Below, one piece after another: positions 5,121-15,319 of a stretch of 28,140 bases of DNA; the first letter of the stretch is position 1, and each line of letters begins with the position of its first letter. Both the position numbers and the translations under genes were made by a program. The DNA lies in the NCBI GenBank assembly GCA_016931015.1, contig JAFGFP010000096.1, forward strand, positions 1 to 28,140, in the 5' to 3' direction. The stretch comes from Dehalococcoidales bacterium. Lineage in GTDB: Bacteria; Chloroflexota; Dehalococcoidia; Dehalococcoidales; UBA5760. The notes under the pieces were generated by a model. The model made no database searches and was not told the DNA's origin. It was given only the letters and a program-made list of their open reading frames with translations.

Positions 5121-5786
5121 TTGATAACATTAGAAAAGCAATTTACGGTCACCCCGGAGCAGGTATGCTGCGAAATGGGATATGCTGCCGACTCCGCGCC
5201 GGCGCCCCGAGTGGCCGCTCTGATTAAGGAACACTTAGACGGGGCGCAGCCGCTGATAAAGCCCTCGTATTCATATCTCTTAAGACGGATAGAGCTGGTC
5301 TTCGGGGCCAGCGTTCTCCTCGAGGACGGGGCCGTCTTCCACAGCCGGACCATCGCCCGTCTGTTGGAGAGGGCCGATGAGGTTGCCGTCTTCGCGCTGA
5401 CCATAGGTGGCGAACTCGAAGACGAAGCGGCCCGGCTGGCCCGGGAGGGCTTTGTCCTCCAGGCCACTGTGCTGGAGACGATAGGCTCGCTCTACACTCA
5501 GCAACTGACCGACTGGGTAGAGACACGAATCGAAGACCTGGCACACGTCCGGGGACAAACTATAAGCCGGCGTTTCAGCCCCGGCTACTGCGACTGGGAC
5601 GTAAGCCAGCAGAAGACGGTCTTCCACCTGCTGCGGGACGACTGCGCCGGGATTAGCCTGACCGATAGCTGTCTCATGATTCCCCGCAAGTCAATGTCAG
5701 GCATTATCGGCATCGGGGACAGTGGCATTACCGACTACAACCCTTGCCGGACCTGTGAGAAACACGACTGCGTTGGCAGGAGGTAA
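5121..5786 (+). CDS. Stand-alone vitamin B12-dependent methionine synthase activation-domain protein
   Basis: TTG start after AAGGAGGAG; VAVFALTIG, RRFSPGYCDWD, GISLTDSCLMIPRKSMSGIIG; C-terminal CxxCxxxxC (PCRTCEKHDC). Confidence 0.85.
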   Translation: MITLEKQFTVTPEQVCCEMGYAADSAPAPRVAALIKEHLDGAQPLIKPSYSYLLRRIELVFGASVLLEDGAVFHSRTIARLLERADEVAVFALTIGGELEDEAARLAREGFVLQATVLETIGSLYTQQLTDWVETRIEDLAHVRGQTISRRFSPGYCDWDVSQQKTVFHLLRDDCAGISLTDSCLMIPRKSMSGIIGIGDSGITDYNPCRTCEKHDCVGRR

Positions 5787-5799
5787 CGCCCGAGAGCCT

Positions 5800-7239
5800 A
5801 TGATACGAAAAGGACTAACCGGCGGCAGCTATAAGCCGCTCAGCGAGGATGCCATCTCCCGAATCCACGATACCGCCATGCGGGTAATCGAGGAGATCGG
5901 CTTCGAGGTAAACTCGGATACGGCCCGGGAGCTCTTTAAGAAGGCCGGGGCGCAGGTGGACGAGGAAAAGAGACGCGTCCGTATGCCCCGGGAGAGGGTT
6001 ATGGAGCTGATTGCCCAGGCCCCCTCCGAGGTCAGGCTCTGCGGCCGGGACGAAAAGCACGACATCCTGTTGGGGGGAAGCCGGGTCTACGCCGGCACCG
6101 GTGGGACGGCGCTCTATATCTACGAACCGGATACCGACCGGAAACGGCCGGCAAATCTGGAAGACCTGAGGTGTTTCGCCCGGCTGGTGGAGCAGCTCGA
6201 CAATATCCATCTTTTCATGCTGTCCACCTACCCCGGCGAGCTGCCGGTGGAGGACATCGACGCCAACCGCTTCTTCGCCGGTCTCACCAACACCGCCAAG
6301 CACGTCATGGGCGGCGTCTATACCCCGGACGGTGTCAAGCGAGTCATAAAGATGGCCGAAATCATCGCCGGCTCCGCCGAAGCGCTCCACGAGCGGCCGC
6401 TAATCTCCATGATAACCTGCAGCATTAGCCCCCTCAAGCTGGACGGCCACTACGGCGACCTGGTAGTGGCCATTGCCCGGGAGGGTATCCCCCTGGTATG
6501 CCCCTCCGAGCCCCTGTGCGGGGCCACCTCCCCCATCACCCTGGCCGGAAACCTGGTAATCCAGACCACGGACTCGCTGATGGGGGTAATACTAACTCAG
6601 ATAGCTAACCCCGGGACACCGGCCGTCTTCGGCTCGGTAGCCACCAGCACCGACCTCCGCGACCTGAGATACCTGGCTGGCTCGGTGGAGATGGGGCTAA
6701 TCAACGCCGCCGGGGCCCAGATGGCCCAGTTCTACAAGCTGCCCTTTTACGCCACGGGCGGCATGAGCGACGCTAAATTGCTGGATGCCCAGAGCGGCTA
6801 CGAGTCGGCCACTACCAGCCTGCTCTGCGCCCTGGCCGGAGCCAACTTCATCCACGACGCCGCCGGGCTGATGGAGTTCGCCCTGACGGCCTGCTTCGAG
6901 AAACTGGTGATTGACAACGAGATACTGGGCATGGTGATGCGGGCTGTCGAGGGCATCAGGGTGGACGATGAAACACTGGCCTACGACCTCATCAAGCAGG
7001 TGGGGCCGGGCGGCCACTTCGTGGCTACCAAGCACACCAGGCACTTCATGCGCAGCGAACACTACCAGCCGCAGCTCAGCGACCGCAGCAGCCGGGAGCA
7101 GTGGCAGGCGGAGGGCGAGAAGGCCACCTGGCAGCGGGCGGCCGAGGTGGTAAAGCGCTTGCTTAAGACCCACAGCTACCGCCTGCCCGATGAGATGCGA
7201 GAGCGCATCATCTCAGAGATACCGGGGATTAAGGCCTGA
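5800..7239 (+). CDS. Trimethylamine methyltransferase (MttB) superfamily protein, non-pyrrolysine, 479 aa
   Basis: Start re-called at ATG 5800 (MIRKGLTGG) so it does not overlap the upstream gene. LSEDAISRIHDTAMRVIEEIG, GATSPITLAG, GGMSDAK..DAQSGYE, AGANFIHDAAG, GPGGHF. No in-frame TAG. Confidence 0.93.
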   Translation: MIRKGLTGGSYKPLSEDAISRIHDTAMRVIEEIGFEVNSDTARELFKKAGAQVDEEKRRVRMPRERVMELIAQAPSEVRLCGRDEKHDILLGGSRVYAGTGGTALYIYEPDTDRKRPANLEDLRCFARLVEQLDNIHLFMLSTYPGELPVEDIDANRFFAGLTNTAKHVMGGVYTPDGVKRVIKMAEIIAGSAEALHERPLISMITCSISPLKLDGHYGDLVVAIAREGIPLVCPSEPLCGATSPITLAGNLVIQTTDSLMGVILTQIANPGTPAVFGSVATSTDLRDLRYLAGSVEMGLINAAGAQMAQFYKLPFYATGGMSDAKLLDAQSGYESATTSLLCALAGANFIHDAAGLMEFALTACFEKLVIDNEILGMVMRAVEGIRVDDETLAYDLIKQVGPGGHFVATKHTRHFMRSEHYQPQLSDRSSREQWQAEGEKATWQRAAEVVKRLLKTHSYRLPDEMRERIISEIPGIKA

Positions 7240-7325: not shown

Positions 7326-8852
7326 ATGGCACGACCGGGAGTTGTAATCGAGCCGTATCAAAGGCTCAAGCTAACGCAGGTGGAGCGGATACACCGCGCC
7401 TCTTTAGAGATACTGACCGACCCCGGCATCATCTGCTTTAACCGCACCGCCGCCGAGCTATTCGCCGACCACGGCGCCGAGGTCACCGCCACGGGGCGGG
7501 AAGAAGCGCCTACCTGGCAGCTCAAGATTCCGGAGCGCCTGGTTAATGAAGCCATCGGCAGTTGCCCCAAGACGGTGAAGCTGGGGGCGCGTAACCAAGA
7601 TAACTGCCTCGTCCTGGACGGCGCCGAGGCCAGGGTGCACTTCGCTTCTGGCTCCGAAGCCAACAAGTGGCTCGAGGTGGACGTGGAGACCTTCGTCAGT
7701 AAGCGCGACCCGTCCCGGGAGACGGAGCTGGCGGTCTTCCGGGAGGAGAAAGGCACCGCCGGGCGGCTGGCCCAGGCGGCCCGTCTCTGCGAGCGCCTCG
7801 ACTCCTGGGACAGCTTCCTGCGCACGGTAAATATTCAGGACGAGGACATTAACCGCGATAACAAGGACGTTAACAAGTTCTTTGTCGCCCTTAACAATAC
7901 CACCAAGCACGTTATGTCCGGGCTGACCGAGATTACCAAGCTAAAGAGCGTGGTCAGGATGGCCCGGATTATCGCCGGGGGAGAAGACGAGTTCCAAAAG
8001 AACCCGATTCTCTCCTTTATCACCTGCGTGGTAAAGAGCCCCCTGCAACTGGTTGACGACACCACCCAGAAGGCGATAGAGATTGCCCGACTGGGCATCC
8101 CATTGGTTATCTCCAGCTCCCCTCAGGGCGGCTCCACCGCCCCCATTAAAGAGGAGGGCATGGTCGCCCAGATAAACGCCGAGATTCTGACCGGGATAAC
8201 GCTTACCCAGATGGTAAACAAGGGCGCCCCCGTGCTCTACGGCAGCGTCCCGGTGAGAACCCGCATGGACAACCTCTACGATTCCTACGGCGTCCCCGAA
8301 TTCAGCCAGTATAACGTAGACTGCATCCAGATGGCGCGCCACTACGGCCTGCCCTGTTACTCCACGGCCGGGGTCTCCGACGTCGCGATACCCAGCATCC
8401 AGGCCGCCGTGGAGAGGCTCTTTTCGCACATCTTAGTCACCCTGGCCGGAGCCCATTATGTCCACTACGCCTTCGGGCTTCTGGAACGGACTAACGTCTT
8501 CTGCCCCGTCCAGGCAGTCTTGGACGACGTCCACATCGACATGGTGAAGCGGTTCGTCCGGCAGCCGGAGGTGAGCGAGGCCAGCATTACGGACTGCCTC
8601 ACCCAGGTAAGGAAGGTTATGACTACCTCCCACAAGCTCTACGTCCGTTTCGTGCGTCACGCCCTTCGCTCCGGTGGGATAACGCCACCCTACCCCTTCG
8701 AAAGTAAAGGCATGACCGATGAGACCCTGGTTCTGGCCCGGCAGCGGTTGGAAAAGCTCCTCTCACTGCCGGCGCCCCACCTCGGCCAGGATATTATAGA
8801 CCGCATCTTTAAGGAGGTGCCTGGCCTGCTACCCAGGCTGCGGAATCTTTAG
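7326..8852 (+). CDS. Second, more divergent MttB-superfamily methyltransferase, non-pyrrolysine
   Basis: IERIHRASLEILTDPG, ALNNTTKHVM, VKSPLQL, GGSTAP, GAPVLYG, ARHYGLPCYSTAGVSD, AGAHYVH.AFGLLE; GAGGAG RBS. Confidence 0.85.
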   Translation: MARPGVVIEPYQRLKLTQVERIHRASLEILTDPGIICFNRTAAELFADHGAEVTATGREEAPTWQLKIPERLVNEAIGSCPKTVKLGARNQDNCLVLDGAEARVHFASGSEANKWLEVDVETFVSKRDPSRETELAVFREEKGTAGRLAQAARLCERLDSWDSFLRTVNIQDEDINRDNKDVNKFFVALNNTTKHVMSGLTEITKLKSVVRMARIIAGGEDEFQKNPILSFITCVVKSPLQLVDDTTQKAIEIARLGIPLVISSSPQGGSTAPIKEEGMVAQINAEILTGITLTQMVNKGAPVLYGSVPVRTRMDNLYDSYGVPEFSQYNVDCIQMARHYGLPCYSTAGVSDVAIPSIQAAVERLFSHILVTLAGAHYVHYAFGLLERTNVFCPVQAVLDDVHIDMVKRFVRQPEVSEASITDCLTQVRKVMTTSHKLYVRFVRHALRSGGITPPYPFESKGMTDETLVLARQRLEKLLSLPAPHLGQDIIDRIFKEVPGLLPRLRNL

Positions 8853-8868
8853 ATTACGGAGAGTAACC

Positions 8869-9555
8869 ATGACGCAAGAAGATATTATCAATCTGATTAA
8901 AGAAAACGTGATTCAGGGAAGGGTCACCCAGGACGACGAGGGGCTGGACGAGGGCATGGTCGGCAAGCCCGGGGTGACCGAGCTCATCGACGAAGCCCTG
9001 GCGGCCGGTATCGAGGTTAAAGACATCATCGCTAAGGGGCTCAGCGCCGGTATGGAAATCGTCGGCGATAAGTTCAGCAGCGGCGAGTTCTTCATCCCCG
9101 ACATGCTCGCCTCGGCGGAAGCCGTCGGCGCCGCCATGGAGAAGCTGGAACCGCATCTCGCCAAAAGCGGCATCAAGGCCAAGGGCAAGATACTGATTGC
9201 CACCGTGAAGGGCGACCTGCACGATATCGGCAAGAACATCGTCTCGATACTGCTGCGCGGGGCCGGTTACACCGTCAAAGACCTGGGGAACGACATCGAG
9301 CCGCAGACCATCGTAGCCGCGGTAAGAGAGGAGAAGCCCCAGTTCCTGGGCCTCTCGGCCCTGCTCACCAGCACCATGACCAGCATGCAGGATACCATCG
9401 AGGCTCTTAAAGAGAGCGGCCTCAGAGACGGGGTGAAGGTAATTATCGGCGGGGCGCCGGTCTCGGAGGAGTTTGCCAAGAGCATCGGGGCCGACGGCTA
9501 TGGCTCCGACGGCTTCCAGGCAGTCGAGACCGTGGAGTCCCTGGCTGCCGGCTAG
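8869..9555 (+). CDS. Cognate corrinoid (B12-binding) protein, MttC/MtbC-like
   Basis: Cap domain (GMEIVGDKFSSGEFFIPDML) plus Rossmann B12 domain with DxHxxG (GDLHDIGKN), LSALLT and IIGGAP. Confidence 0.95.
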   Translation: MTQEDIINLIKENVIQGRVTQDDEGLDEGMVGKPGVTELIDEALAAGIEVKDIIAKGLSAGMEIVGDKFSSGEFFIPDMLASAEAVGAAMEKLEPHLAKSGIKAKGKILIATVKGDLHDIGKNIVSILLRGAGYTVKDLGNDIEPQTIVAAVREEKPQFLGLSALLTSTMTSMQDTIEALKESGLRDGVKVIIGGAPVSEEFAKSIGADGYGSDGFQAVETVESLAAG

Positions 9556-9566
9556 GAAGAGACTGG

Positions 9567-10793
9567 ATGAGCGAGAAGGATGCCTACAACGAAGCCCTCA
9601 GGAGCGGGCAGTATGCCAAACCCGGGGGGCTGTTGGGTAAGTACGATAACGTCCGCCGCTTCTGGGAAGACGAGGAGCTCGGGCTCTACCTGAGACCCTA
9701 CCTGGAAGAACTAATCGCCAGGAAGAAGAAAAACGCCGAAGGCTTGCGAGTCTTAGACCTGGGCTGCGGCAGCGGCGACGGCCTGGAGTTACTCTCCGGG
9801 ATTACCCGCCGCGACGCCCCCGTCTCGGAGCACGATAGCGCCGTGATACCCGCCGCTATGCTGGAGCGCTACCAGGGGATTGACATTAACCAGGGACTCC
9901 TGGAACAGGCGCGCAGTATCTACGGGGACAGGGAGAACATCGCCTTCACCGACGCCGATATAAACAACTACGACCTGAGCGGCGACGTCCCCTACGACCT
10001 TTACCTGGCTAACTACGGGACACTGTCCCACAACAGTGACGAGCAGACGGTGGCCATCCTGAGCCGCATCGCCGGGCACGCCAAAGACGGCGCCCTGGTA
10101 CTCGTCGACTGGCTGGGGCGCTTTTCCTACGAGTGGCAGACCCTGTGGACGCATGATTTCGAGCACAACCAGTGGATGAACTACACCATCTCTTATATCT
10201 ACGCCGGCGACCGGCAGAAACAGGCGGCGCTAACCTACTTCCCGCTGCGGCTGATGGCGCGCGCCGAAGCGCTCGATATCTACCAGCGGGTCAAGGCGGA
10301 GACGGGCGATGCCATCACCCTGCGCCAACTGGCCGACCGCTCATCGTTCGTCGGCCGCCACATGGATACTGCCCAGTATAACCCCCACTGCCCGCCGCTG
10401 CGGAGGCTGGTTAACTCGCTCTTCGAGCCCAACGCAGCCACCGACCTGGACGAACTGTTGATTCGCTACGTCCCTATGGAAGGCTTCCCCGAGATAAACG
10501 CCTACTACGAGAAGTTTACCGACTGGTGGAACCACCTCGTAATGGCCACCACAGCCGGGCTGGCGGGAAAGACGCCGCCCGAAGCACCCGGAGAAATCCC
10601 CGACACTGCCGTAGAGGTGCTCAGCAACATGAAGGGAGTCCTGAAACTGGCGGCGATGCTGAAGATAGGTAACCCCCGGGCCAGCCTGGTCGAGCCCCAG
10701 CTCGGCTATTGCCTCCGCGAGCTTGAGATGGGCCTGCAACAAGGGCTGGGCTGCGGACACGGGTTGGTGGCCCTCTTTGAGATTGTAAAGTAA
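9567..10793 (+). CDS. Class I SAM-dependent methyltransferase, 408 aa, with long N- and C-terminal extensions; substrate unknown
   Basis: Motif I VLDLGCGSGDG, motif II YQGIDIN, later DLYLANYGTLSH. Confidence 0.8.
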   Translation: MSEKDAYNEALRSGQYAKPGGLLGKYDNVRRFWEDEELGLYLRPYLEELIARKKKNAEGLRVLDLGCGSGDGLELLSGITRRDAPVSEHDSAVIPAAMLERYQGIDINQGLLEQARSIYGDRENIAFTDADINNYDLSGDVPYDLYLANYGTLSHNSDEQTVAILSRIAGHAKDGALVLVDWLGRFSYEWQTLWTHDFEHNQWMNYTISYIYAGDRQKQAALTYFPLRLMARAEALDIYQRVKAETGDAITLRQLADRSSFVGRHMDTAQYNPHCPPLRRLVNSLFEPNAATDLDELLIRYVPMEGFPEINAYYEKFTDWWNHLVMATTAGLAGKTPPEAPGEIPDTAVEVLSNMKGVLKLAAMLKIGNPRASLVEPQLGYCLRELEMGLQQGLGCGHGLVALFEIVK

Positions 10794-10833
10794 CCCTTAC
10801 CGGGCTGATACGGGCTATGAGGAGGTTAAGAGC

Positions 10834-12351
10834 ATGAGCGGACTTGCCGTCGCCTACGGGAAGAAACCCAAGCTAGGTGATATTAACGCCATGATGCGGG
10901 CCATCGCCCACCGCGGCCCCACCGCCTCCGGGGTGTATCAAGCGGACGGCATCGTCATGGCTCAGAACTATCTTCGGGCCGACGGCGCCCGCCCCGATAG
11001 CGACGTTCCGGTGCGCAGCCCTGATAACCCCAATCTCGCCATCTGCTACGACGGCCAGATGGGCAACTGGGCGGAGCTGGCCTCCGCACACGGCGTCCCC
11101 GACGGGCCCTTCCGAGAGGAGCGCCTGATACTGGCCCTCTACCAGAAATATGGCCGGGGAATGCTCGAATATCTCGGTGACACCATCTTCGCCCTGGTCA
11201 TCTTCGACGGGAAGGACATCTTAGCGGCACGCGACCTGCTCGGTATCAAGACCCTCTTCTACGCCGAGAGAAACAGCACCCTGTTTTTTGCCTCCGAGCT
11301 TAAAGAGCTACTACCAGTGAGTAAGGCGGTCTATGAGTTCCCCAACGGCTGCGCCATGGACGGCAGCGGACATCTGAGCAGCTTCGCCGAGCTACCCGAG
11401 AAACCACCTCGCCCCTGGAGGCGCAGCCCGAAGCGGATGGCCGCTGACATCAGGGGCATCATCGAGCAGAGCTTCCGTAACCGGATTGACTTCAGCCTGC
11501 CCACGGGGGGCCTGCTCAGCGGCGGTCTGGACAGCAGCGTCATTAACTCTATCGCCAGCCGGGCCTACAAAGAGAAAAAAGGCAAGGCGGCGAGACTGAA
11601 AACCTTCGCTCTGGGCGTGGGCGAGAGTAACGACATTGTGTCAGCCCGCCTGGTAGCCAGTCACATCGACTCGGAGCACCACGAGCTTATCGTCAGCCTC
11701 GAGGACATGCTCGCGGTTCTCCCCAAGGTTATCTACCACCTGGAGAGCTTCGACCCCTCGCTGGTAAGAAGCTCGGTAGCCAACTACCTTGTCTCCCGTT
11801 ACGCCCACGAACAGGGCATCCAGATACTGCTCTCCGGCGAGGGGGGGGACGAGGTCTTCTGCGGCTATCGCTATCTTGCCGACTACCCCGCCGAGGCCCT
11901 GTTCGGCGAACAGATGGCCTGTATCGGCCGACTGCACAACAACGCCTCCCTGCGCCTGGACCGGATGAACATGGCTAACTCGATACGGGTGGTGGCGCCG
12001 CTGATTTCAGGGAAGCTGCTCGACTACGCCCTGGCCATAGCCCCCGAGTACAAGCAAATGCCCGACGGGGCCGACAAAATCGAGAAGTGGATTATGCGCA
12101 AGGCCTACGAAAAGCAGCTGCCACAGCCGGTAGTCTGGCGGCGCAAGCAGGAGTTTTCCCAGGGCTCAGGCTCAGCCGACGCCCTGACCGCCTACTTCGA
12201 GGAGCAAGTCCCGGACCGGGAACTGACTGAGGCCCAGGCCGCTCAGCCGCTAATCCGCAGTAAGGAAGAGCTCCACTACTTCCGACTCTTCACCGGGTAC
12301 TTCGGCAGCGGCCCGGCCGTGGCCACGGTGGGCCAATGGCTCTGCCTCTAG
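10834..12351 (+). CDS. Asparagine synthase (AsnB)-like ATP-dependent amide ligase with a degenerate glutaminase domain
   Basis: HRGP, ARDLLGIKTLFY, FASELK, PP-loop LLSGGLDSS, LSGEGGDEVFCGY. N-terminus is MSGL, not MCGI. Confidence 0.85.
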   Translation: MSGLAVAYGKKPKLGDINAMMRAIAHRGPTASGVYQADGIVMAQNYLRADGARPDSDVPVRSPDNPNLAICYDGQMGNWAELASAHGVPDGPFREERLILALYQKYGRGMLEYLGDTIFALVIFDGKDILAARDLLGIKTLFYAERNSTLFFASELKELLPVSKAVYEFPNGCAMDGSGHLSSFAELPEKPPRPWRRSPKRMAADIRGIIEQSFRNRIDFSLPTGGLLSGGLDSSVINSIASRAYKEKKGKAARLKTFALGVGESNDIVSARLVASHIDSEHHELIVSLEDMLAVLPKVIYHLESFDPSLVRSSVANYLVSRYAHEQGIQILLSGEGGDEVFCGYRYLADYPAEALFGEQMACIGRLHNNASLRLDRMNMANSIRVVAPLISGKLLDYALAIAPEYKQMPDGADKIEKWIMRKAYEKQLPQPVVWRRKQEFSQGSGSADALTAYFEEQVPDRELTEAQAAQPLIRSKEELHYFRLFTGYFGSGPAVATVGQWLCL

Positions 12352-12373: not shown

Positions 12374-12411
12374 AAAAGCCCCCGATTTCCGGATCGGTTT
12401 CGGGGGCTTTT
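12374..12411. terminator. Bidirectional intrinsic terminator between the convergent AsnB-like gene and wtpA
   Basis: AAAAGCCCCCGA...TCGGGGGCTTTT, a 12-bp inverted repeat with A/T tails on both sides. Confidence 0.85.
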
Positions 12412-12434: not shown

Positions 12435-13403
12435 CTAGTCGAGGTATTTCTGCAGCGACTCGGGCGCCAGGCTCGCATCGTTGGTCTGTGCCGGAACCAC
12501 CGCTGGTTGACCGTAGGCTTCCATGATAGCAATACCTTGGTCACTCAGCAGATAATCAATCCAGGCTACGCCCAGGTCGTGTTCGGGCGAGTCGGTGGGT
12601 ATGGTAACCCCGTAAACGATGGCCGTACCCCTTTGCTCGATGGTAGTCCCCGGCTCGGTACCGGCAATCTCCACCACGGCGGTATCGTAGAAATCCCTGT
12701 AGGTCTCGTCGGCCAGATTTATCTGAGGTGGCAGTTTTACGTAGTTTAGCTTTTGTTCTGCAGCCACCGAGGTGTACTCGAAGGCATAGTCCAGGTCGCC
12801 CGACTCCAGAAGGGCAATCAGGTCCACGGACTTAGGCCGCATAACGTCCCCTTCGGCCTGGTAGAGGGCGTCATATAACCCGGGAGCGCCGTAGTGCTCT
12901 TCGGCCAGCTGCCAAACCATGAGCGTCCGGTAGCCGCAGGGATCCTGGTCGGGGTCGCTGCGGCCGTAGTTAACGCCGTCTCTCTGCAGTATCTCATACC
13001 AGTTATCGCTATTTATCTCAGCAGCGAACTGCGAACTATCGGTGTAGGCGAGACACATCTGGTTGGTGGCGAAGATGATGTACCAGTCGGCAAAATCAGG
13101 GAACATCAGCTGCGGGATTAAGTTGTAATCAGCCGAGCCGATAACGCCACACTCCCGCTGGAGCTCGGTAACCTTACGAATGGTGGTGGCGCTGCCGGCT
13201 CCTTCGGATAAGACCTCCACGTCGGGATAGATCTCATTGAAACTTCTGGTTACTTCATCAAACGGTGCGGTCAAGCTCCCGGCGTGGAAGATATGCAGCG
13301 TCCCCGATAATCCTGCCTCCTGGGCCGGCTTAGCACAGCCAGCCGCCAGGCTTAAGACCAGGCTCACTGCCAGGCAAAAACCAATAATGGGAAATTTCTT
13401 CAT
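12435..13403 (-). CDS. wtpA: Tungstate/molybdate ABC transporter substrate-binding lipoprotein, WtpA type
   Basis: Lipobox LAAG-C; IFHAGSL, EGAGS, GRSDPDQDPCGYR, LDYAFEYTSVA, IVYGVTIP are WtpA-like, not ModA- or TupA-like. Confidence 0.88.
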   Translation of the reverse strand: MKKFPIIGFCLAVSLVLSLAAGCAKPAQEAGLSGTLHIFHAGSLTAPFDEVTRSFNEIYPDVEVLSEGAGSATTIRKVTELQRECGVIGSADYNLIPQLMFPDFADWYIIFATNQMCLAYTDSSQFAAEINSDNWYEILQRDGVNYGRSDPDQDPCGYRTLMVWQLAEEHYGAPGLYDALYQAEGDVMRPKSVDLIALLESGDLDYAFEYTSVAAEQKLNYVKLPPQINLADETYRDFYDTAVVEIAGTEPGTTIEQRGTAIVYGVTIPTDSPEHDLGVAWIDYLLSDQGIAIMEAYGQPAVVPAQTNDASLAPESLQKYLD

Positions 13404-13440
13404 CTGTCTTCCTCCTCAAAGTTTGCTCGTGTAAGCATTG

Positions 13441-13470
13441 AATCTATTATTAATCTATTATTAATCTATA
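13441..13470 (-). promoter_or_regulatory. 11-bp tandem repeat (ATTAATAATAG x2 plus partial copies) in the wtpC-wtpA spacer
   Basis: Minus strand reads TATAGATTAATAATAGATTAATAATAGATT, ~38 nt upstream of the wtpA ATG; 18/19 identical to 1936-1954. Confidence 0.65.
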
Positions 13471-13482
13471 GGCCGCCCTCCT

Positions 13483-14529
13483 CTAGAAGATATTAACCGC
13501 CGATGCCTTAAAGGTAATGTAGACTTGCCTGCCCACCGAAAGCTCCATAGCTTCAAAAGAGTTCCTGGTAACCAGGCAGACGAAGTCGGGAGGCACGTTT
13601 ATCGTCAGCAGCAGCGTGGAGCCCTTATCGCTAACCCCGGTAATCGTCCCCGCAAACGAGTTACGGGCGCTGGAGGGGAAGGGAGCGTGGGAAACGATGA
13701 TATCCTCGGGGCGGAGAGAAGCATGGCACCGGCCGTGGTGCTCGGTGACCACCGCCAGGCGGACCCCGTCAACCTCGAACAGGGCGCCCTCGCTCTCATC
13801 GCTACGCACTTCTCCCAGGAAAATATTCCTCACCATAGCGAAGCGGGCGACGAACTCGGAGCCGGGCTGACGGAATATCTGCTCCGGAGTGCCTATCTGC
13901 TGAATAGCGCCGTCGCCGATTACGGCGACCCGGTCGGCCAGGGCGATGGCCTCCTCGAAATCATGGGTAACGTGAACCGTGGTCACCCGGTACTGCTCGT
14001 GGAGCCGCTTGAGCTCACGCTGCAGGACCTCCCGGCTGTTCGGGTCGAGGGCGCTGAGCGGCTCATCGAGCAGAAGCAGCCGGGGACGGACGCTCAAGGC
14101 CCGGGCCAGGGCTATCTTCTGCTTCTCGCCGCCGCTCAAGGTATCCGGTTTGCGGTCGAGCAGGTGGTCTATCCCCAGCAGCTCGGAGAGCCAGGCCAGG
14201 GTCGCCTCCATCTCGGCAGGGCTATCCTTCCGAATTTTCAAGCCGAAGGTAATGTTGTCCCTTACCGTGAGGTGGGGAAAGAGCATCTGGTCCTGATAGA
14301 CGATGCTGATACCACGCTTCTCCGGCTGAAGCCCGGTAACCTCCCGTCCCCCCAACCAGATGCGCCCCCGCTTCAGGGGATAGAGCCCGGCCATGGACTC
14401 AAGAAGAACGGTCTTACCGGCCCCGGTCGGCCCCAGTATCACGAAGTACTCGCCGGCCGAGATGTCGAGGTTGGCCCCGCGCAGCACGAAGTCCCCCAGG
14501 TCCACCCAGAGGTCTCTTACCTCAATCAC
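13483..14529 (-). CDS. wtpC: Tungstate/molybdate ABC transporter ATPase with C-terminal TOBE domain
   Basis: Walker A GPTGAGKT, signature LSGGE, Walker B LLLDEP, H-loop VTHD; C-terminal SARNSFAG...ITFKASAV (TOBE). Confidence 0.9.
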   Translation of the reverse strand: MIEVRDLWVDLGDFVLRGANLDISAGEYFVILGPTGAGKTVLLESMAGLYPLKRGRIWLGGREVTGLQPEKRGISIVYQDQMLFPHLTVRDNITFGLKIRKDSPAEMEATLAWLSELLGIDHLLDRKPDTLSGGEKQKIALARALSVRPRLLLLDEPLSALDPNSREVLQRELKRLHEQYRVTTVHVTHDFEEAIALADRVAVIGDGAIQQIGTPEQIFRQPGSEFVARFAMVRNIFLGEVRSDESEGALFEVDGVRLAVVTEHHGRCHASLRPEDIIVSHAPFPSSARNSFAGTITGVSDKGSTLLLTINVPPDFVCLVTRNSFEAMELSVGRQVYITFKASAVNIF

Positions 14530-15319
14530 CCTTCCGACCCCCCTTTACCAGGGTTCTGAGAACGACGAAGATAATAAGGCTGATTAAGATGAGCAATACC
14601 GCCACCGGCCGGGAGTAGGTCAGCCCGTAGGTCTCGAAGCGCTCGTAGATGAGGGTAGGGGCAATCATGGGGTGATAGGCGAGAATAATGACCGCCCCGA
14701 ACTCGCTTATGCCGCGCGCCCACATCATGATGTTCCCCGAGAGGATGCTCCTCCAGGCTAGGGGGAAGGAAATCTTGAAGAAGGTCTGCCAGGGCGAAGC
14801 GCCCAGGGTGCGGGCCACCTTTTCCAGCCGGACGTCCACCTTTTTGAAGCCCTCTTTGGCCGAATCTATGAGGAAGGGCACGCTGACGAAGAGCATGGCC
14901 ACCACGATACCGGCCGTGGAATCAACAAAATGGATACCCACCGCATCGAAGGCCCGGCCGGCCAGGAAGTTACGCCCGAAGACGAAAAGCAGGGCGATAC
15001 CGGCGGCGGTGTGGGGCACCACGATGGGGACATCAATCAGCCCCTCGACTATTCTCTTGCCCCGAAACTCGTGACGGGCCAGGAGGTAGGCCAGGGGCAC
15101 CCCGAGCACGAAACCGACCCCGGTGGCGATAAGGGCCGTATACAGGGTGAGCAGTATGGCTTTGGTTACCTCAGGGTCGAAAAGGGTCTCCCGCAGGATA
15201 TCGGGGTCAGAGGCAAAAATCATGCGGAAGAGAGGCACGATAATGAACAGGAAGATAACGGCCCCGAGCAGTATAAAGGTCAGCGTCAGCTTATTTGACC
15301 TTACCCACTCCTTTAGCAA
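14522..15319 (-). CDS. wtpB: Tungstate/molybdate ABC transporter permease
   Basis: TTG start 5 nt after GGAGG; GVPLAYLLAR, IDVPIVVPHTAAG, EAA-like loop LEKVARTLGAS, WARGISEFGAV. Confidence 0.9.
   Translation of the reverse strand: MLKEWVRSNKLTLTFILLGAVIFLFIIVPLFRMIFASDPDILRETLFDPEVTKAILLTLYTALIATGVGFVLGVPLAYLLARHEFRGKRIVEGLIDVPIVVPHTAAGIALLFVFGRNFLAGRAFDAVGIHFVDSTAGIVVAMLFVSVPFLIDSAKEGFKKVDVRLEKVARTLGASPWQTFFKISFPLAWRSILSGNIMMWARGISEFGAVIILAYHPMIAPTLIYERFETYGLTYSRPVAVLLILISLIIFVVLRTLVKGGRKGD

Follow-up and report, generated by a model that had tools for sequence, protein, structure and literature searches.

Introduction

Variants of asparagine synthetase B (AsnB) in which Cys1 has been exchanged for alanine or serine (C1A and C1S) retain ammonia-dependent synthesis, and in the related beta-lactam synthetase (beta-LS) and carbapenam synthetase (CarA) the pocket of the N-terminal domain is regarded as vestigial. 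Betaines, for their part, are major osmolytes and methyl donors of saline sediments, and three or four proteins suffice in the known anaerobic systems built around methyltransferases of the MttB family. Here we describe a locus in which these two subjects meet. In a stretch of 28,140 nucleotides from a Dehalococcoidales bacterium (GCA_016931015.1, contig JAFGFP010000096.1, positions 1-28,140 of the forward strand; the whole stretch is hereafter the window), the gene at 10834..12351 (+) encodes a Cys-less AsnB paralogue of 505 amino acids, which we call AsnX. This ATP-consuming relative of AsnB travels with MttB systems over at least seven phyla and, as shown by synteny, is co-transcribed and co-inherited with methyltransferase genes and importers. 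Our reading, held with evenly divided confidence, is that AsnX may be an ammonia-dependent asparagine-type synthetase dedicated to a betaine and methyl-transfer regulon.

Three sets of residues in the described systems serve as reference points. In AsnB, Cys1, Arg49, Asn74, Glu76 and Asp98 ensure glutamine binding and thioester stabilisation, Arg49 being the residue that binds the glutamine carboxylate (PMC6748925), and Asn74 and Glu76 take part in the oxyanion hole, in binding of the glutamine amino group and in the network gating the ammonia tunnel, a gate made of Glu398 together with Asn74, Glu76, Arg142 and Asp405 (PMC6748925, PMC11615228). On the synthetase side, Ser346, Glu348, Asp351, Glu352, Arg387 and Lys449 contact the ribose, the amino and carboxylate groups of beta-aspartyl-AMP and the phosphate; the human asparagine synthetase (ASNS) variants E364A/Q and D367A, which correspond to Glu348 and Asp351, are inactive (PMC6748925, PMC11615228). 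In turn, MtgB of Desulfitobacterium hafniense binds glycine betaine through four residues, Tyr97, Arg312, His348 and Phe356, of which Arg312 holds the carboxylate (PMC13080624).

A Family Without the Glutamine Site

The AsnX reading frame, established by translation, profile searches and a structure model, is preceded by a Shine-Dalgarno sequence read directly from the DNA (AGGAGG, 10820..10825, +, 8 nt 5′ of the ATG). The protein begins MSGLAV, and there is no in-frame start further upstream. Its Pfam domains are GATase_7/GATase_6 and Asn_synthase, and it scores under the cut-offs of both AsnB equivalogs (371.1 vs 499 bits for NF006949, 246.8 vs 267.1 for TIGR01536). The AlphaFold2 model is confident throughout, with a mean predicted local distance difference test score (pLDDT) of 93.5 and a predicted template modelling (TM) score of 0.91. 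The N-terminal domain, of the N-terminal nucleophile (Ntn) type (residues about 1-190, 10834..11403, +), is recognised by its GATase_7/GATase_6 matches and modelled in blocks with a pLDDT of 91-98; it is folded and conserved, without its nucleophile, and its mean column conservation is 0.66, compared with 0.75 in the C-terminal domain.

Residues were mapped by HMMER alignment to Escherichia coli AsnB (1CT9, mature numbering). Ser2 (codon AGC, 10837..10839, +) takes the place of the catalytic Cys1, and all four glutamine-site residues are substituted (R49Y, N74D, E76Q and D98E), with Tyr46 (10969..10971, +) in place of Arg49, Asp73-Gly74-Gln75 (11050..11058, +) in place of Asn74-Gly75-Glu76, and Glu95 (11116..11118, +) in place of Asp98. 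The initial annotation of this DNA had pointed to the MSGL start, AQNYLRAD (43-50), DGQMGN (73-78), SGGLDSS (229-235) and SGEGGDE (334-340), all of which are found in the translation. It had also read AQNYLRAD as the counterpart of the usual H.RL.I.D stretch; the string is there, but the wording was imprecise, as the Arg of H.RL pairs with Tyr46 and not with the Arg of LRAD. Its broader claim, that the glutaminase function is gone and the adenylating synthetase site conserved, is borne out by the alignment to 1CT9 and by conservation across the family.

A protein search over 5.8 billion proteins, which listed 120 clusters for AsnX, indicates at least 120 clusters at 62-84% identity, nearly all of 503-507 amino acids. 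Leaving aside six clusters that are truncated or carry a longer N-terminus, those listed begin with MSG[LIF] or, in a few cases, MAG, and never with MCG, and the motifs AQNYLxADG and CYDGQMGNW recur throughout. When one genome per species was scanned, orthologues appeared at 50-79% identity, followed by a sharp fall to 38% or less for ordinary AsnB. They are found in Dehalococcoidales, in Desulfobacterales and other Thermodesulfobacteriota, in Nitrospirota, Planctomycetota, Spirochaetota and Atribacterota, as well as in records labelled Myxococcota or Deltaproteobacteria, a spread of at least seven phyla. One cultured strain, Desulfoferrobacter suflitae DRH4, carries the gene, and in a sample of 401 Chloroflexota genomes AsnX is confined to the window's own genus. 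Near-identical DNA is present in sediment, marine sediment, marsh and salt-marsh metagenomes; among the sequencing runs searched, those holding it were DNA runs (sediment, marsh) and none was an RNA run.

In 46 aligned orthologues, position 2 is Ser (41), Ala (4) or Gly (1) and never Cys. Tyr46 is kept in 45, Asp73 in all 46 and Gln75 in 43, and position 95 is Glu in 41 (89%), Asp in 4 and Ala in 1; Glu95 excepted, the remodelled pocket residues are thus conserved at 93-100% over at least seven phyla. Since the substitution pattern is family-wide, it is neither chance nor sequencing error. The possibility, raised in the initial annotation, that close homologues retain Cys and this copy is an isolated decaying allele is at odds with the absence of Cys from 46/46 orthologues and from the N-terminally complete listed clusters. 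The alignment shows an N-terminal domain unable to hydrolyse glutamine, because position 2 lacks a nucleophile and accepts Ala or Gly; that Ser2 could act as an alternative Ntn nucleophile was considered and rejected, as Ala or Gly stand there in otherwise conserved orthologues. In the maximum-likelihood tree, all 45 AsnX rows are set off from the rest by a long stem, a branch that has 100/100 support. ESM Atlas look-ups led to nothing more specific than generic clusters of AsnB and of class I methyltransferases.

Other Cys-less AsnB-like lineages were also met, in three archaeal metagenome-assembled genomes (MAGs; L068, L072 and L074) and two from Actinomycetota (L073 and L075). Their proteins, with the N-termini MEGIAG and MAGLAA, share 30-34% identity with AsnX, sit on long branches and have GEGGDE and LRLDRM-type motifs in common; in L072 and L074, pterin-binding and/or RACo-like genes lie within 10 kb of the AsnB-like gene.

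Synthetase Site and Remodelled Pocket

On the synthetase side, by contrast with the glutamine site, the residues of AsnB are kept. The PP-loop SGGLDSS (residues 229-235, 11518..11538, +), the ATP pyrophosphatase motif, is invariant in 52 aligned sequences, AsnX and canonical enzymes taken together. The same holds for Ser334, Glu336, Asp339 and Glu340, which correspond in the alignments to Ser346, Glu348, Asp351 and Glu352 of AsnB and lie in SGEGGDE (residues 334-340, 11833..11853, +). Equally invariant are Arg374 (11953..11955, +), equivalent to Arg387, whose role is taken from PMC11615228, and Lys438 (12145..12147, +), equivalent to Lys449 of AsnB and to Lys443 of beta-LS, the essential lysine at the adenylate phosphate (PMC6748925).

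The interface between the two domains has changed. The AsnB motif VEARVPFLD is replaced by IRVVAPLIS (residues 384-392, 11983..12009, +, by alignment), so that Glu398 becomes Arg385, Arg400 becomes Val387 and Asp405 becomes Ser392. Position 385 is Arg or Lys in 46/46 AsnX sequences vs Glu in 6/6 canonical ones; its human counterpart, Glu414, is described as absolutely conserved and as lying less than 5 Å from the glutamine pocket (PMC6748925). In AsnX the tunnel-gate network reads Asp73, Gln75, Lys139, Asp376 and Arg385, and it is rearranged and conserved rather than lost. The strict conservation of Tyr46, Asp73, Gln75, Glu95, Lys139, Asp376 and Arg/Lys385 suggests that the old glutamine pocket and the mouth of the tunnel probably still work. 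More loosely, their most plausible role would be that of an ammonium entry or binding site feeding the old ammonia tunnel.

A Genomic Link to Betaine and Methyl-Group Metabolism

Gene neighbourhoods were compared at 32 loci where AsnX is flanked on either side by 4 kb or more, counting neighbours within 10 kb. A gene for an S-adenosylmethionine (SAM) methyltransferase-like protein is present at 25 of them and directly adjacent to AsnX at 21, and MttB is likewise present at 25, figures that uphold the link to the neighbouring methyltransferases drawn in the initial annotation. A corrinoid protein is encoded at 24 loci, a pterin methyltransferase at 20, an activation-domain protein at 18 and a MarR regulator at 14, and 26 loci have either MttB or an OpuAC-type importer. 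Furthermore, a canonical, Cys-bearing AsnB is found at seven loci. These copies (MCGI start, HRRLSIMDP, ANGEIYNF) constitute a clade of their own, sister in the tree to the canonical AsnB of the window's genome, and since they adjoin AsnX every time, a product shared by the two enzymes is suggested.

The most complete arrangement in culture is that of D. suflitae DRH4 (L026/L099), where a MarR gene is followed by those for the activation-domain protein, MttB1, the pterin methyltransferase, MttB2, the corrinoid protein, the SAM-methyltransferase-like protein, canonical AsnB, AsnX, MetK and AhcY; TrkH/TrkA come next on the opposite strand, and after another 6 kb there is a second MttB module. 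At the other extreme, in three MAGs, two from Atribacterota and one unclassified, the sole partners of AsnX, which lies 3′ of them, are a MarR gene and an OpuAC-type ABC importer. Neither the two Atribacterota MAGs nor one AsnX-bearing Spirochaetales MAG gave an MttB match at any position; because these three MAGs have no detectable MttB, the link is to betaine-type compounds in general and not strictly to MttB.

The window has six genes in one orientation, with AsnX at the end, an order that recurs in relatives, often with the addition of a pterin-binding methyltransferase. The operon opens with a MetH-activation-domain-like protein (5121..5786, +, by annotation), followed by two MttB-family methyltransferases of the non-pyrrolysine (non-Pyl) kind, namely the MtgB-like MttB1 (5722..7239, +, from profile and structure-sequence matches) and the divergent MttB2 (7326..8852, +, from profile matches). 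Then come an MtgC-like corrinoid protein (8869..9555, +, also from profile matches) and the 408-residue class I SAM-methyltransferase-like protein, here MTlike (9567..10793, +), in which the VLDLGCGSG (GxGxG) motif is intact. A terminator-like hairpin with a T-rich tail (12386..12406, +), 35 nt 3′ of the AsnX stop, marks the operon's end. MttB1 matches D. hafniense MtgB (2QNE/9YCE) with 294 bits and keeps two of the four betaine-binding residues, His348 and Phe356, while Tyr97 is replaced by Gly128 and Arg312 by Tyr343; with half of the set kept, its substrate may be other than glycine betaine. Among the matches listed for MTlike there are close Chloroflexota-type relatives only, other lineages not being reached.

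Several further features of these neighbourhoods deserve mention. As listed, MttB1 starts at a GTG and shares 65 nt with the gene before it, its Pfam match does not set in until residue 35, and in relatives the protein has 481 amino acids and starts directly after the upstream gene, so that the true start is probably downstream of 5722. Beyond the hairpin lies a convergent and complete WtpA/WtpC/WtpB tungstate ABC transporter (12435-15319, -), with WtpA above its equivalog cut-off and WtpB and WtpC slightly under theirs. In a Dehalococcoidia relative (L001/L002, 11647-15067), a glycyl-radical enzyme (PFL-like plus Gly_radical) and its activase are encoded 3′ of AsnX. The Spirochaetales MAG without detectable MttB carries at that place (L065, 11400-12662) a methionine-salvage gene of the IF-2B/MtnA family, another tie to SAM and methionine metabolism. 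Finally, a Desulfobacterales genome (G406, L039) has at least 24 MttB-family matches in one chromosome, and the one in-frame TAG that each of four of them contains suggests MttB genes of the pyrrolysine type.

Asparagine Supply and the Proposed Reaction

The window's own assembly (1.15 Mb, 80% complete) holds, on another contig, a second AsnB-family gene (P0121) with a MCGIVA start, RLSIMD, NGEIYN and RVPFLD. It scores 604 bits against the cut-off of 499, is 36% identical to AsnX and adjoins an open reading frame that resembles an ammonium transporter. AsnX is thus a specialised paralogue, because a normal AsnB is also encoded in the same genome. In this assembly no asparaginyl-tRNA synthetase (AsnRS) lies above the TIGR00457 cut-off, and AsnA is absent. 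A purely housekeeping role was considered, and it is weakened for this genome by the canonical AsnB on another contig and by the lack of an AsnRS above the cut-off.

Elsewhere the picture is different. AsnX is the sole AsnB-family match (E value of 1e-20 or better) in 11 of 40 further AsnX genomes and also in both Atribacterota MAGs. An AsnRS scoring above the TIGR00457 cut-off is encoded in all 13 genomes, and AsnA is missing from 11 of them; two of the assemblies consist of a single contig. The pattern fits asparagine made from free ammonia, in a suggestive manner only.

On these grounds we propose, with even weight for and against, that AsnX belongs to the AsnB family as a catalytically active enzyme that works without glutamine. 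Free ammonia was one of the amine sources put forward in the initial annotation and is the best supported of them; AsnX would most likely make an amide from it. Aspartate as the acid, free ammonia as the nucleophile and asparagine as the product make up a scheme that we judge roughly evenly poised. ATP would be bound at the PP-loop and a carboxylate adenylated with release of pyrophosphate (PPi); aspartate, or an amino acid closely resembling it, would most probably supply this group as its beta-carboxylate. Ammonium would enter via the remodelled pocket of the N-terminal domain and then the old tunnel, and free ammonia would attack the acyl-AMP, Glu336 and Lys438 acting as Glu348 and Lys449 do in AsnB, to give an asparagine-type amide and AMP. 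Acyl-adenylate formation followed by attack of a nitrogen nucleophile from a source other than glutamine is what knowledge of the family leads one to expect. In this genome the amide, or asparagine itself, would serve the betaine and methyl-group regulon of sediment anaerobes and not general housekeeping, because AsnX is co-inherited with a SAM methyltransferase, two MttB proteins, a corrinoid protein and betaine-type importers.

A number of observations weigh against this proposal. Bacteria with AsnRS and without an asparagine synthetase are known, using the tRNA-dependent route; asparagine may also be imported, and MAGs can be incomplete, so the argument from sole homologues is suggestive only. 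The coexistence of a canonical AsnB with the lack of an AsnRS above the cut-off is seen in the window's genome and again across its genus. Because of it, simple asparagine supply fails to explain the retention of AsnX, which in that genus must have another role or meet a further, operon-related need. Moreover, plain asparagine synthesis leaves the linkage to the SAM methyltransferase, MttB and the OpuAC importers unexplained. The identity of the substrate, as we propose it, is drawn from homology. Near the aspartate site AsnX has fixed changes (Asp384 to Ala371, Lys376 to Cys363 and Gly355 to Cys343), and Asp384 of AsnB belongs to the pocket for the substrate amino group (PMC6748925). Lastly, the Glu/Asp/Glu cluster and the Arg are equally present in TsnB9, an enzyme with a different acid as its substrate, so the conserved synthetase residues do not prove aspartate as the substrate.

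Alternative Explanations

The main rival, which we consider possible and rather doubtful, is that AsnX amidates or ligates a betaine-type carboxylate other than aspartate, for instance an imported quaternary or N-methylated amino acid, and that, with the adjacent SAM methyltransferase, an amide-bearing betaine would be formed and then demethylated by the two MttB enzymes. To our knowledge no amide-bearing betaine of this kind has been described, which counts against it. The genomic context accords with such a compound, given MTlike adjacent at 21/32 loci, MttB or OpuAC within 10 kb at 26/32, MetK and AhcY in the D. suflitae cluster, and the Atribacterota and one other MAG in which MarR and an OpuAC-type importer are the only partners, with no MttB found in the Atribacterota genomes. 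The loss in MttB1 of the carboxylate-binding Arg312 of MtgB (PMC13080624) points the same way, and the change of Asp384 to Ala371 could free room for N-methyl groups (PMC6748925). However, an AMP-forming step is costly for catabolism in energy-limited anaerobes, a compound made and broken by one operon would be odd, and AsnRS together with AsnX as sole homologue fits asparagine synthesis better. Related to this rival is a wider proposal, put forward tentatively and with similar doubt. AsnX and the SAM methyltransferase would stand at the centre of a pathway not yet described, one for an amide-bearing, asparagine- or betaine-derived methylated solute of sediment anaerobes, in which the dead pocket (Tyr46, Asp73, Glu95 and Arg385) would be re-engineered for ammonium or a quaternary amine and the two non-Pyl MttB proteins, with their altered pockets, would take the methyl groups of the solute.

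The remaining explanations change the amine, the acid or the very existence of activity. Ligation of mono- or dimethylamine instead of ammonia to aspartate, an idea of the initial annotation that would make AsnX an N-alkyl-asparagine synthetase, seems to us unlikely. The pocket and tunnel mouth are remodelled and not degraded, the new Asp73 and Tyr46 could suit an alkylammonium ion, and gamma-glutamylmethylamide synthetase offers an analogy. Nevertheless, non-Pyl MttB enzymes yield tertiary amines, which cannot form amides, and not primary or secondary ones; the annotated cluster has no methylamine-producing enzyme, and Co(I) chemistry does not act on the N-acyl methyl groups that such an amide would carry. 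The idea has gained no positive evidence. Action on a macromolecule or cofactor, be it an amide-linked modification of MttB2 or the corrinoid protein or the re-amidation of a salvaged corrinoid, is more improbable still. Lasso-peptide cyclases are AsnB-like enzymes that act on peptides (with a weak NF033535 match here), the linkage to MttB2 and the corrinoid protein is tight, and the cost in ATP would be tolerable for an occasional maintenance reaction, but the cyclases are much further from AsnX than is AsnB, an enzyme of small molecules. Moreover, three MAGs, two from Atribacterota and one from Spirochaetales, carry AsnX and no detectable MttB; modification of MttB, taken as a separate candidate, is weakened by the same three genomes. 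The lactam synthetase that cyclises an N-substituted amino acid, also suggested initially, is very improbable. AsnX shares with beta-LS and CarA the loss of the N-terminal Cys and the two-domain fold, yet AsnB is far closer (278 bits and a TM of 0.86 vs 61-64 bits and 0.72-0.76), no antibiotic-cluster genes are found nearby in the annotated neighbourhood, and AsnX has Glu336, an AsnB-type catalytic Glu, and Asn369 where beta-LS has its catalytic Tyr348 and Glu382, which makes lactam cyclisation unlikely. Five lost glutaminase residues and scores under the AsnB equivalog cut-offs could be taken as signs of a decaying or catalytically dead pseudo-enzyme, to us the least credible of all and one that the conservation data already contradict: the reading frame is unbroken, the model is confident, more than 100 homologues are conserved with an invariant synthetase site and altered pocket, and the operon position is kept across phyla.

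Significance

The AsnX family is a widespread and undescribed group of AsnB-derived, glutamine-independent synthetases, whose genes, in anaerobes of sediments, lie in clusters for the import of betaines and for demethylation dependent on vitamin B12. A full-text search of the literature found no paper on it, or on an AsnB-like protein linked with MttB systems. In databases its members are named 'asparagine synthase (glutamine-hydrolysing)' or 'asparagine synthase-related protein', and it is because of the first of these names that AsnX has been overlooked. If AsnX is an ammonia-dependent asparagine synthetase, predictions of asparagine pathways would be corrected for many MAGs, and the enzyme would be, as far as we know, the natural counterpart of a state otherwise studied mainly in engineered C1A mutants. 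If it acts instead on a betaine, a new step in quaternary-amine metabolism would be added. On either reading, current automatic annotation is wrong about the use of glutamine by AsnX.

Comparison with Known Systems

The closest described relative of the operon is the glycine betaine:tetrahydrofolate system MtgB/MtgC/MtgA of D. hafniense, which it resembles in its MtgB-like MttB protein and its MtgC-like corrinoid protein, relatives of the locus adding a pterin-binding methyltransferase. The described system, in contrast, has no AsnB-like enzyme, no SAM methyltransferase and no second, divergent MttB.

Among the enzymes, E. coli AsnB (1CT9) is the nearest, with a Foldseek TM of 0.86, a root-mean-square deviation of 2.8 Å, 30% identity and 278 profile bits, followed by human ASNS (6GQ3; TM 0.85, 235 bits). 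TsnB9 (TM 0.73, 80 bits), beta-LS (1JGT; TM 0.76, 64 bits) and CarA (1Q15; TM about 0.72, 61 bits) are more distant. AsnX has the two-domain Ntn and PP-loop fold of AsnB and ASNS and keeps their synthetase residues. Unlike AsnB, it is devoid of Cys1, it has other residues, fixed family-wide, at the four glutamine-binding positions and at those of the interface Glu398/Arg400, and it constitutes a separate, long-stem clade with a dedicated betaine/MttB genomic context.

As regards beta-LS and CarA, these too are AsnB-derived, no longer have the N-terminal Cys and employ their adenylating domain independently of glutamine; Lys443/Lys449 is conserved. In the alignment to 1JGT, Tyr348 and Glu382, which we take to be the catalytic dyad of beta-LS, pair with Glu336 and, in a weakly aligned stretch, with Asn369 of AsnX, and Lys443 pairs with Lys438; at the place of Tyr348, AsnX therefore has the AsnB-type catalytic Glu. 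Identity to beta-LS and CarA is 16-21%, a far greater distance than to AsnB, and the N-terminal pocket of AsnX is remodelled and conserved. From the lasso-peptide and macrolactam cyclases AsnX is set apart by scores below the cut-offs (125 vs 525 bits for NF033535, 32 vs 300 for NF033561), and no lasso precursor-peptide or protease genes are found nearby in the annotated AsnX neighbourhood.

Finally, the fold of AsnX is unrelated to that of AsnA, which resembles a class II aminoacyl-tRNA synthetase. The net reaction, Asp + NH3 + ATP -> Asn + AMP + PPi, is probably the same, however, as is, probably, the physiological niche beside a glutamine-dependent enzyme.

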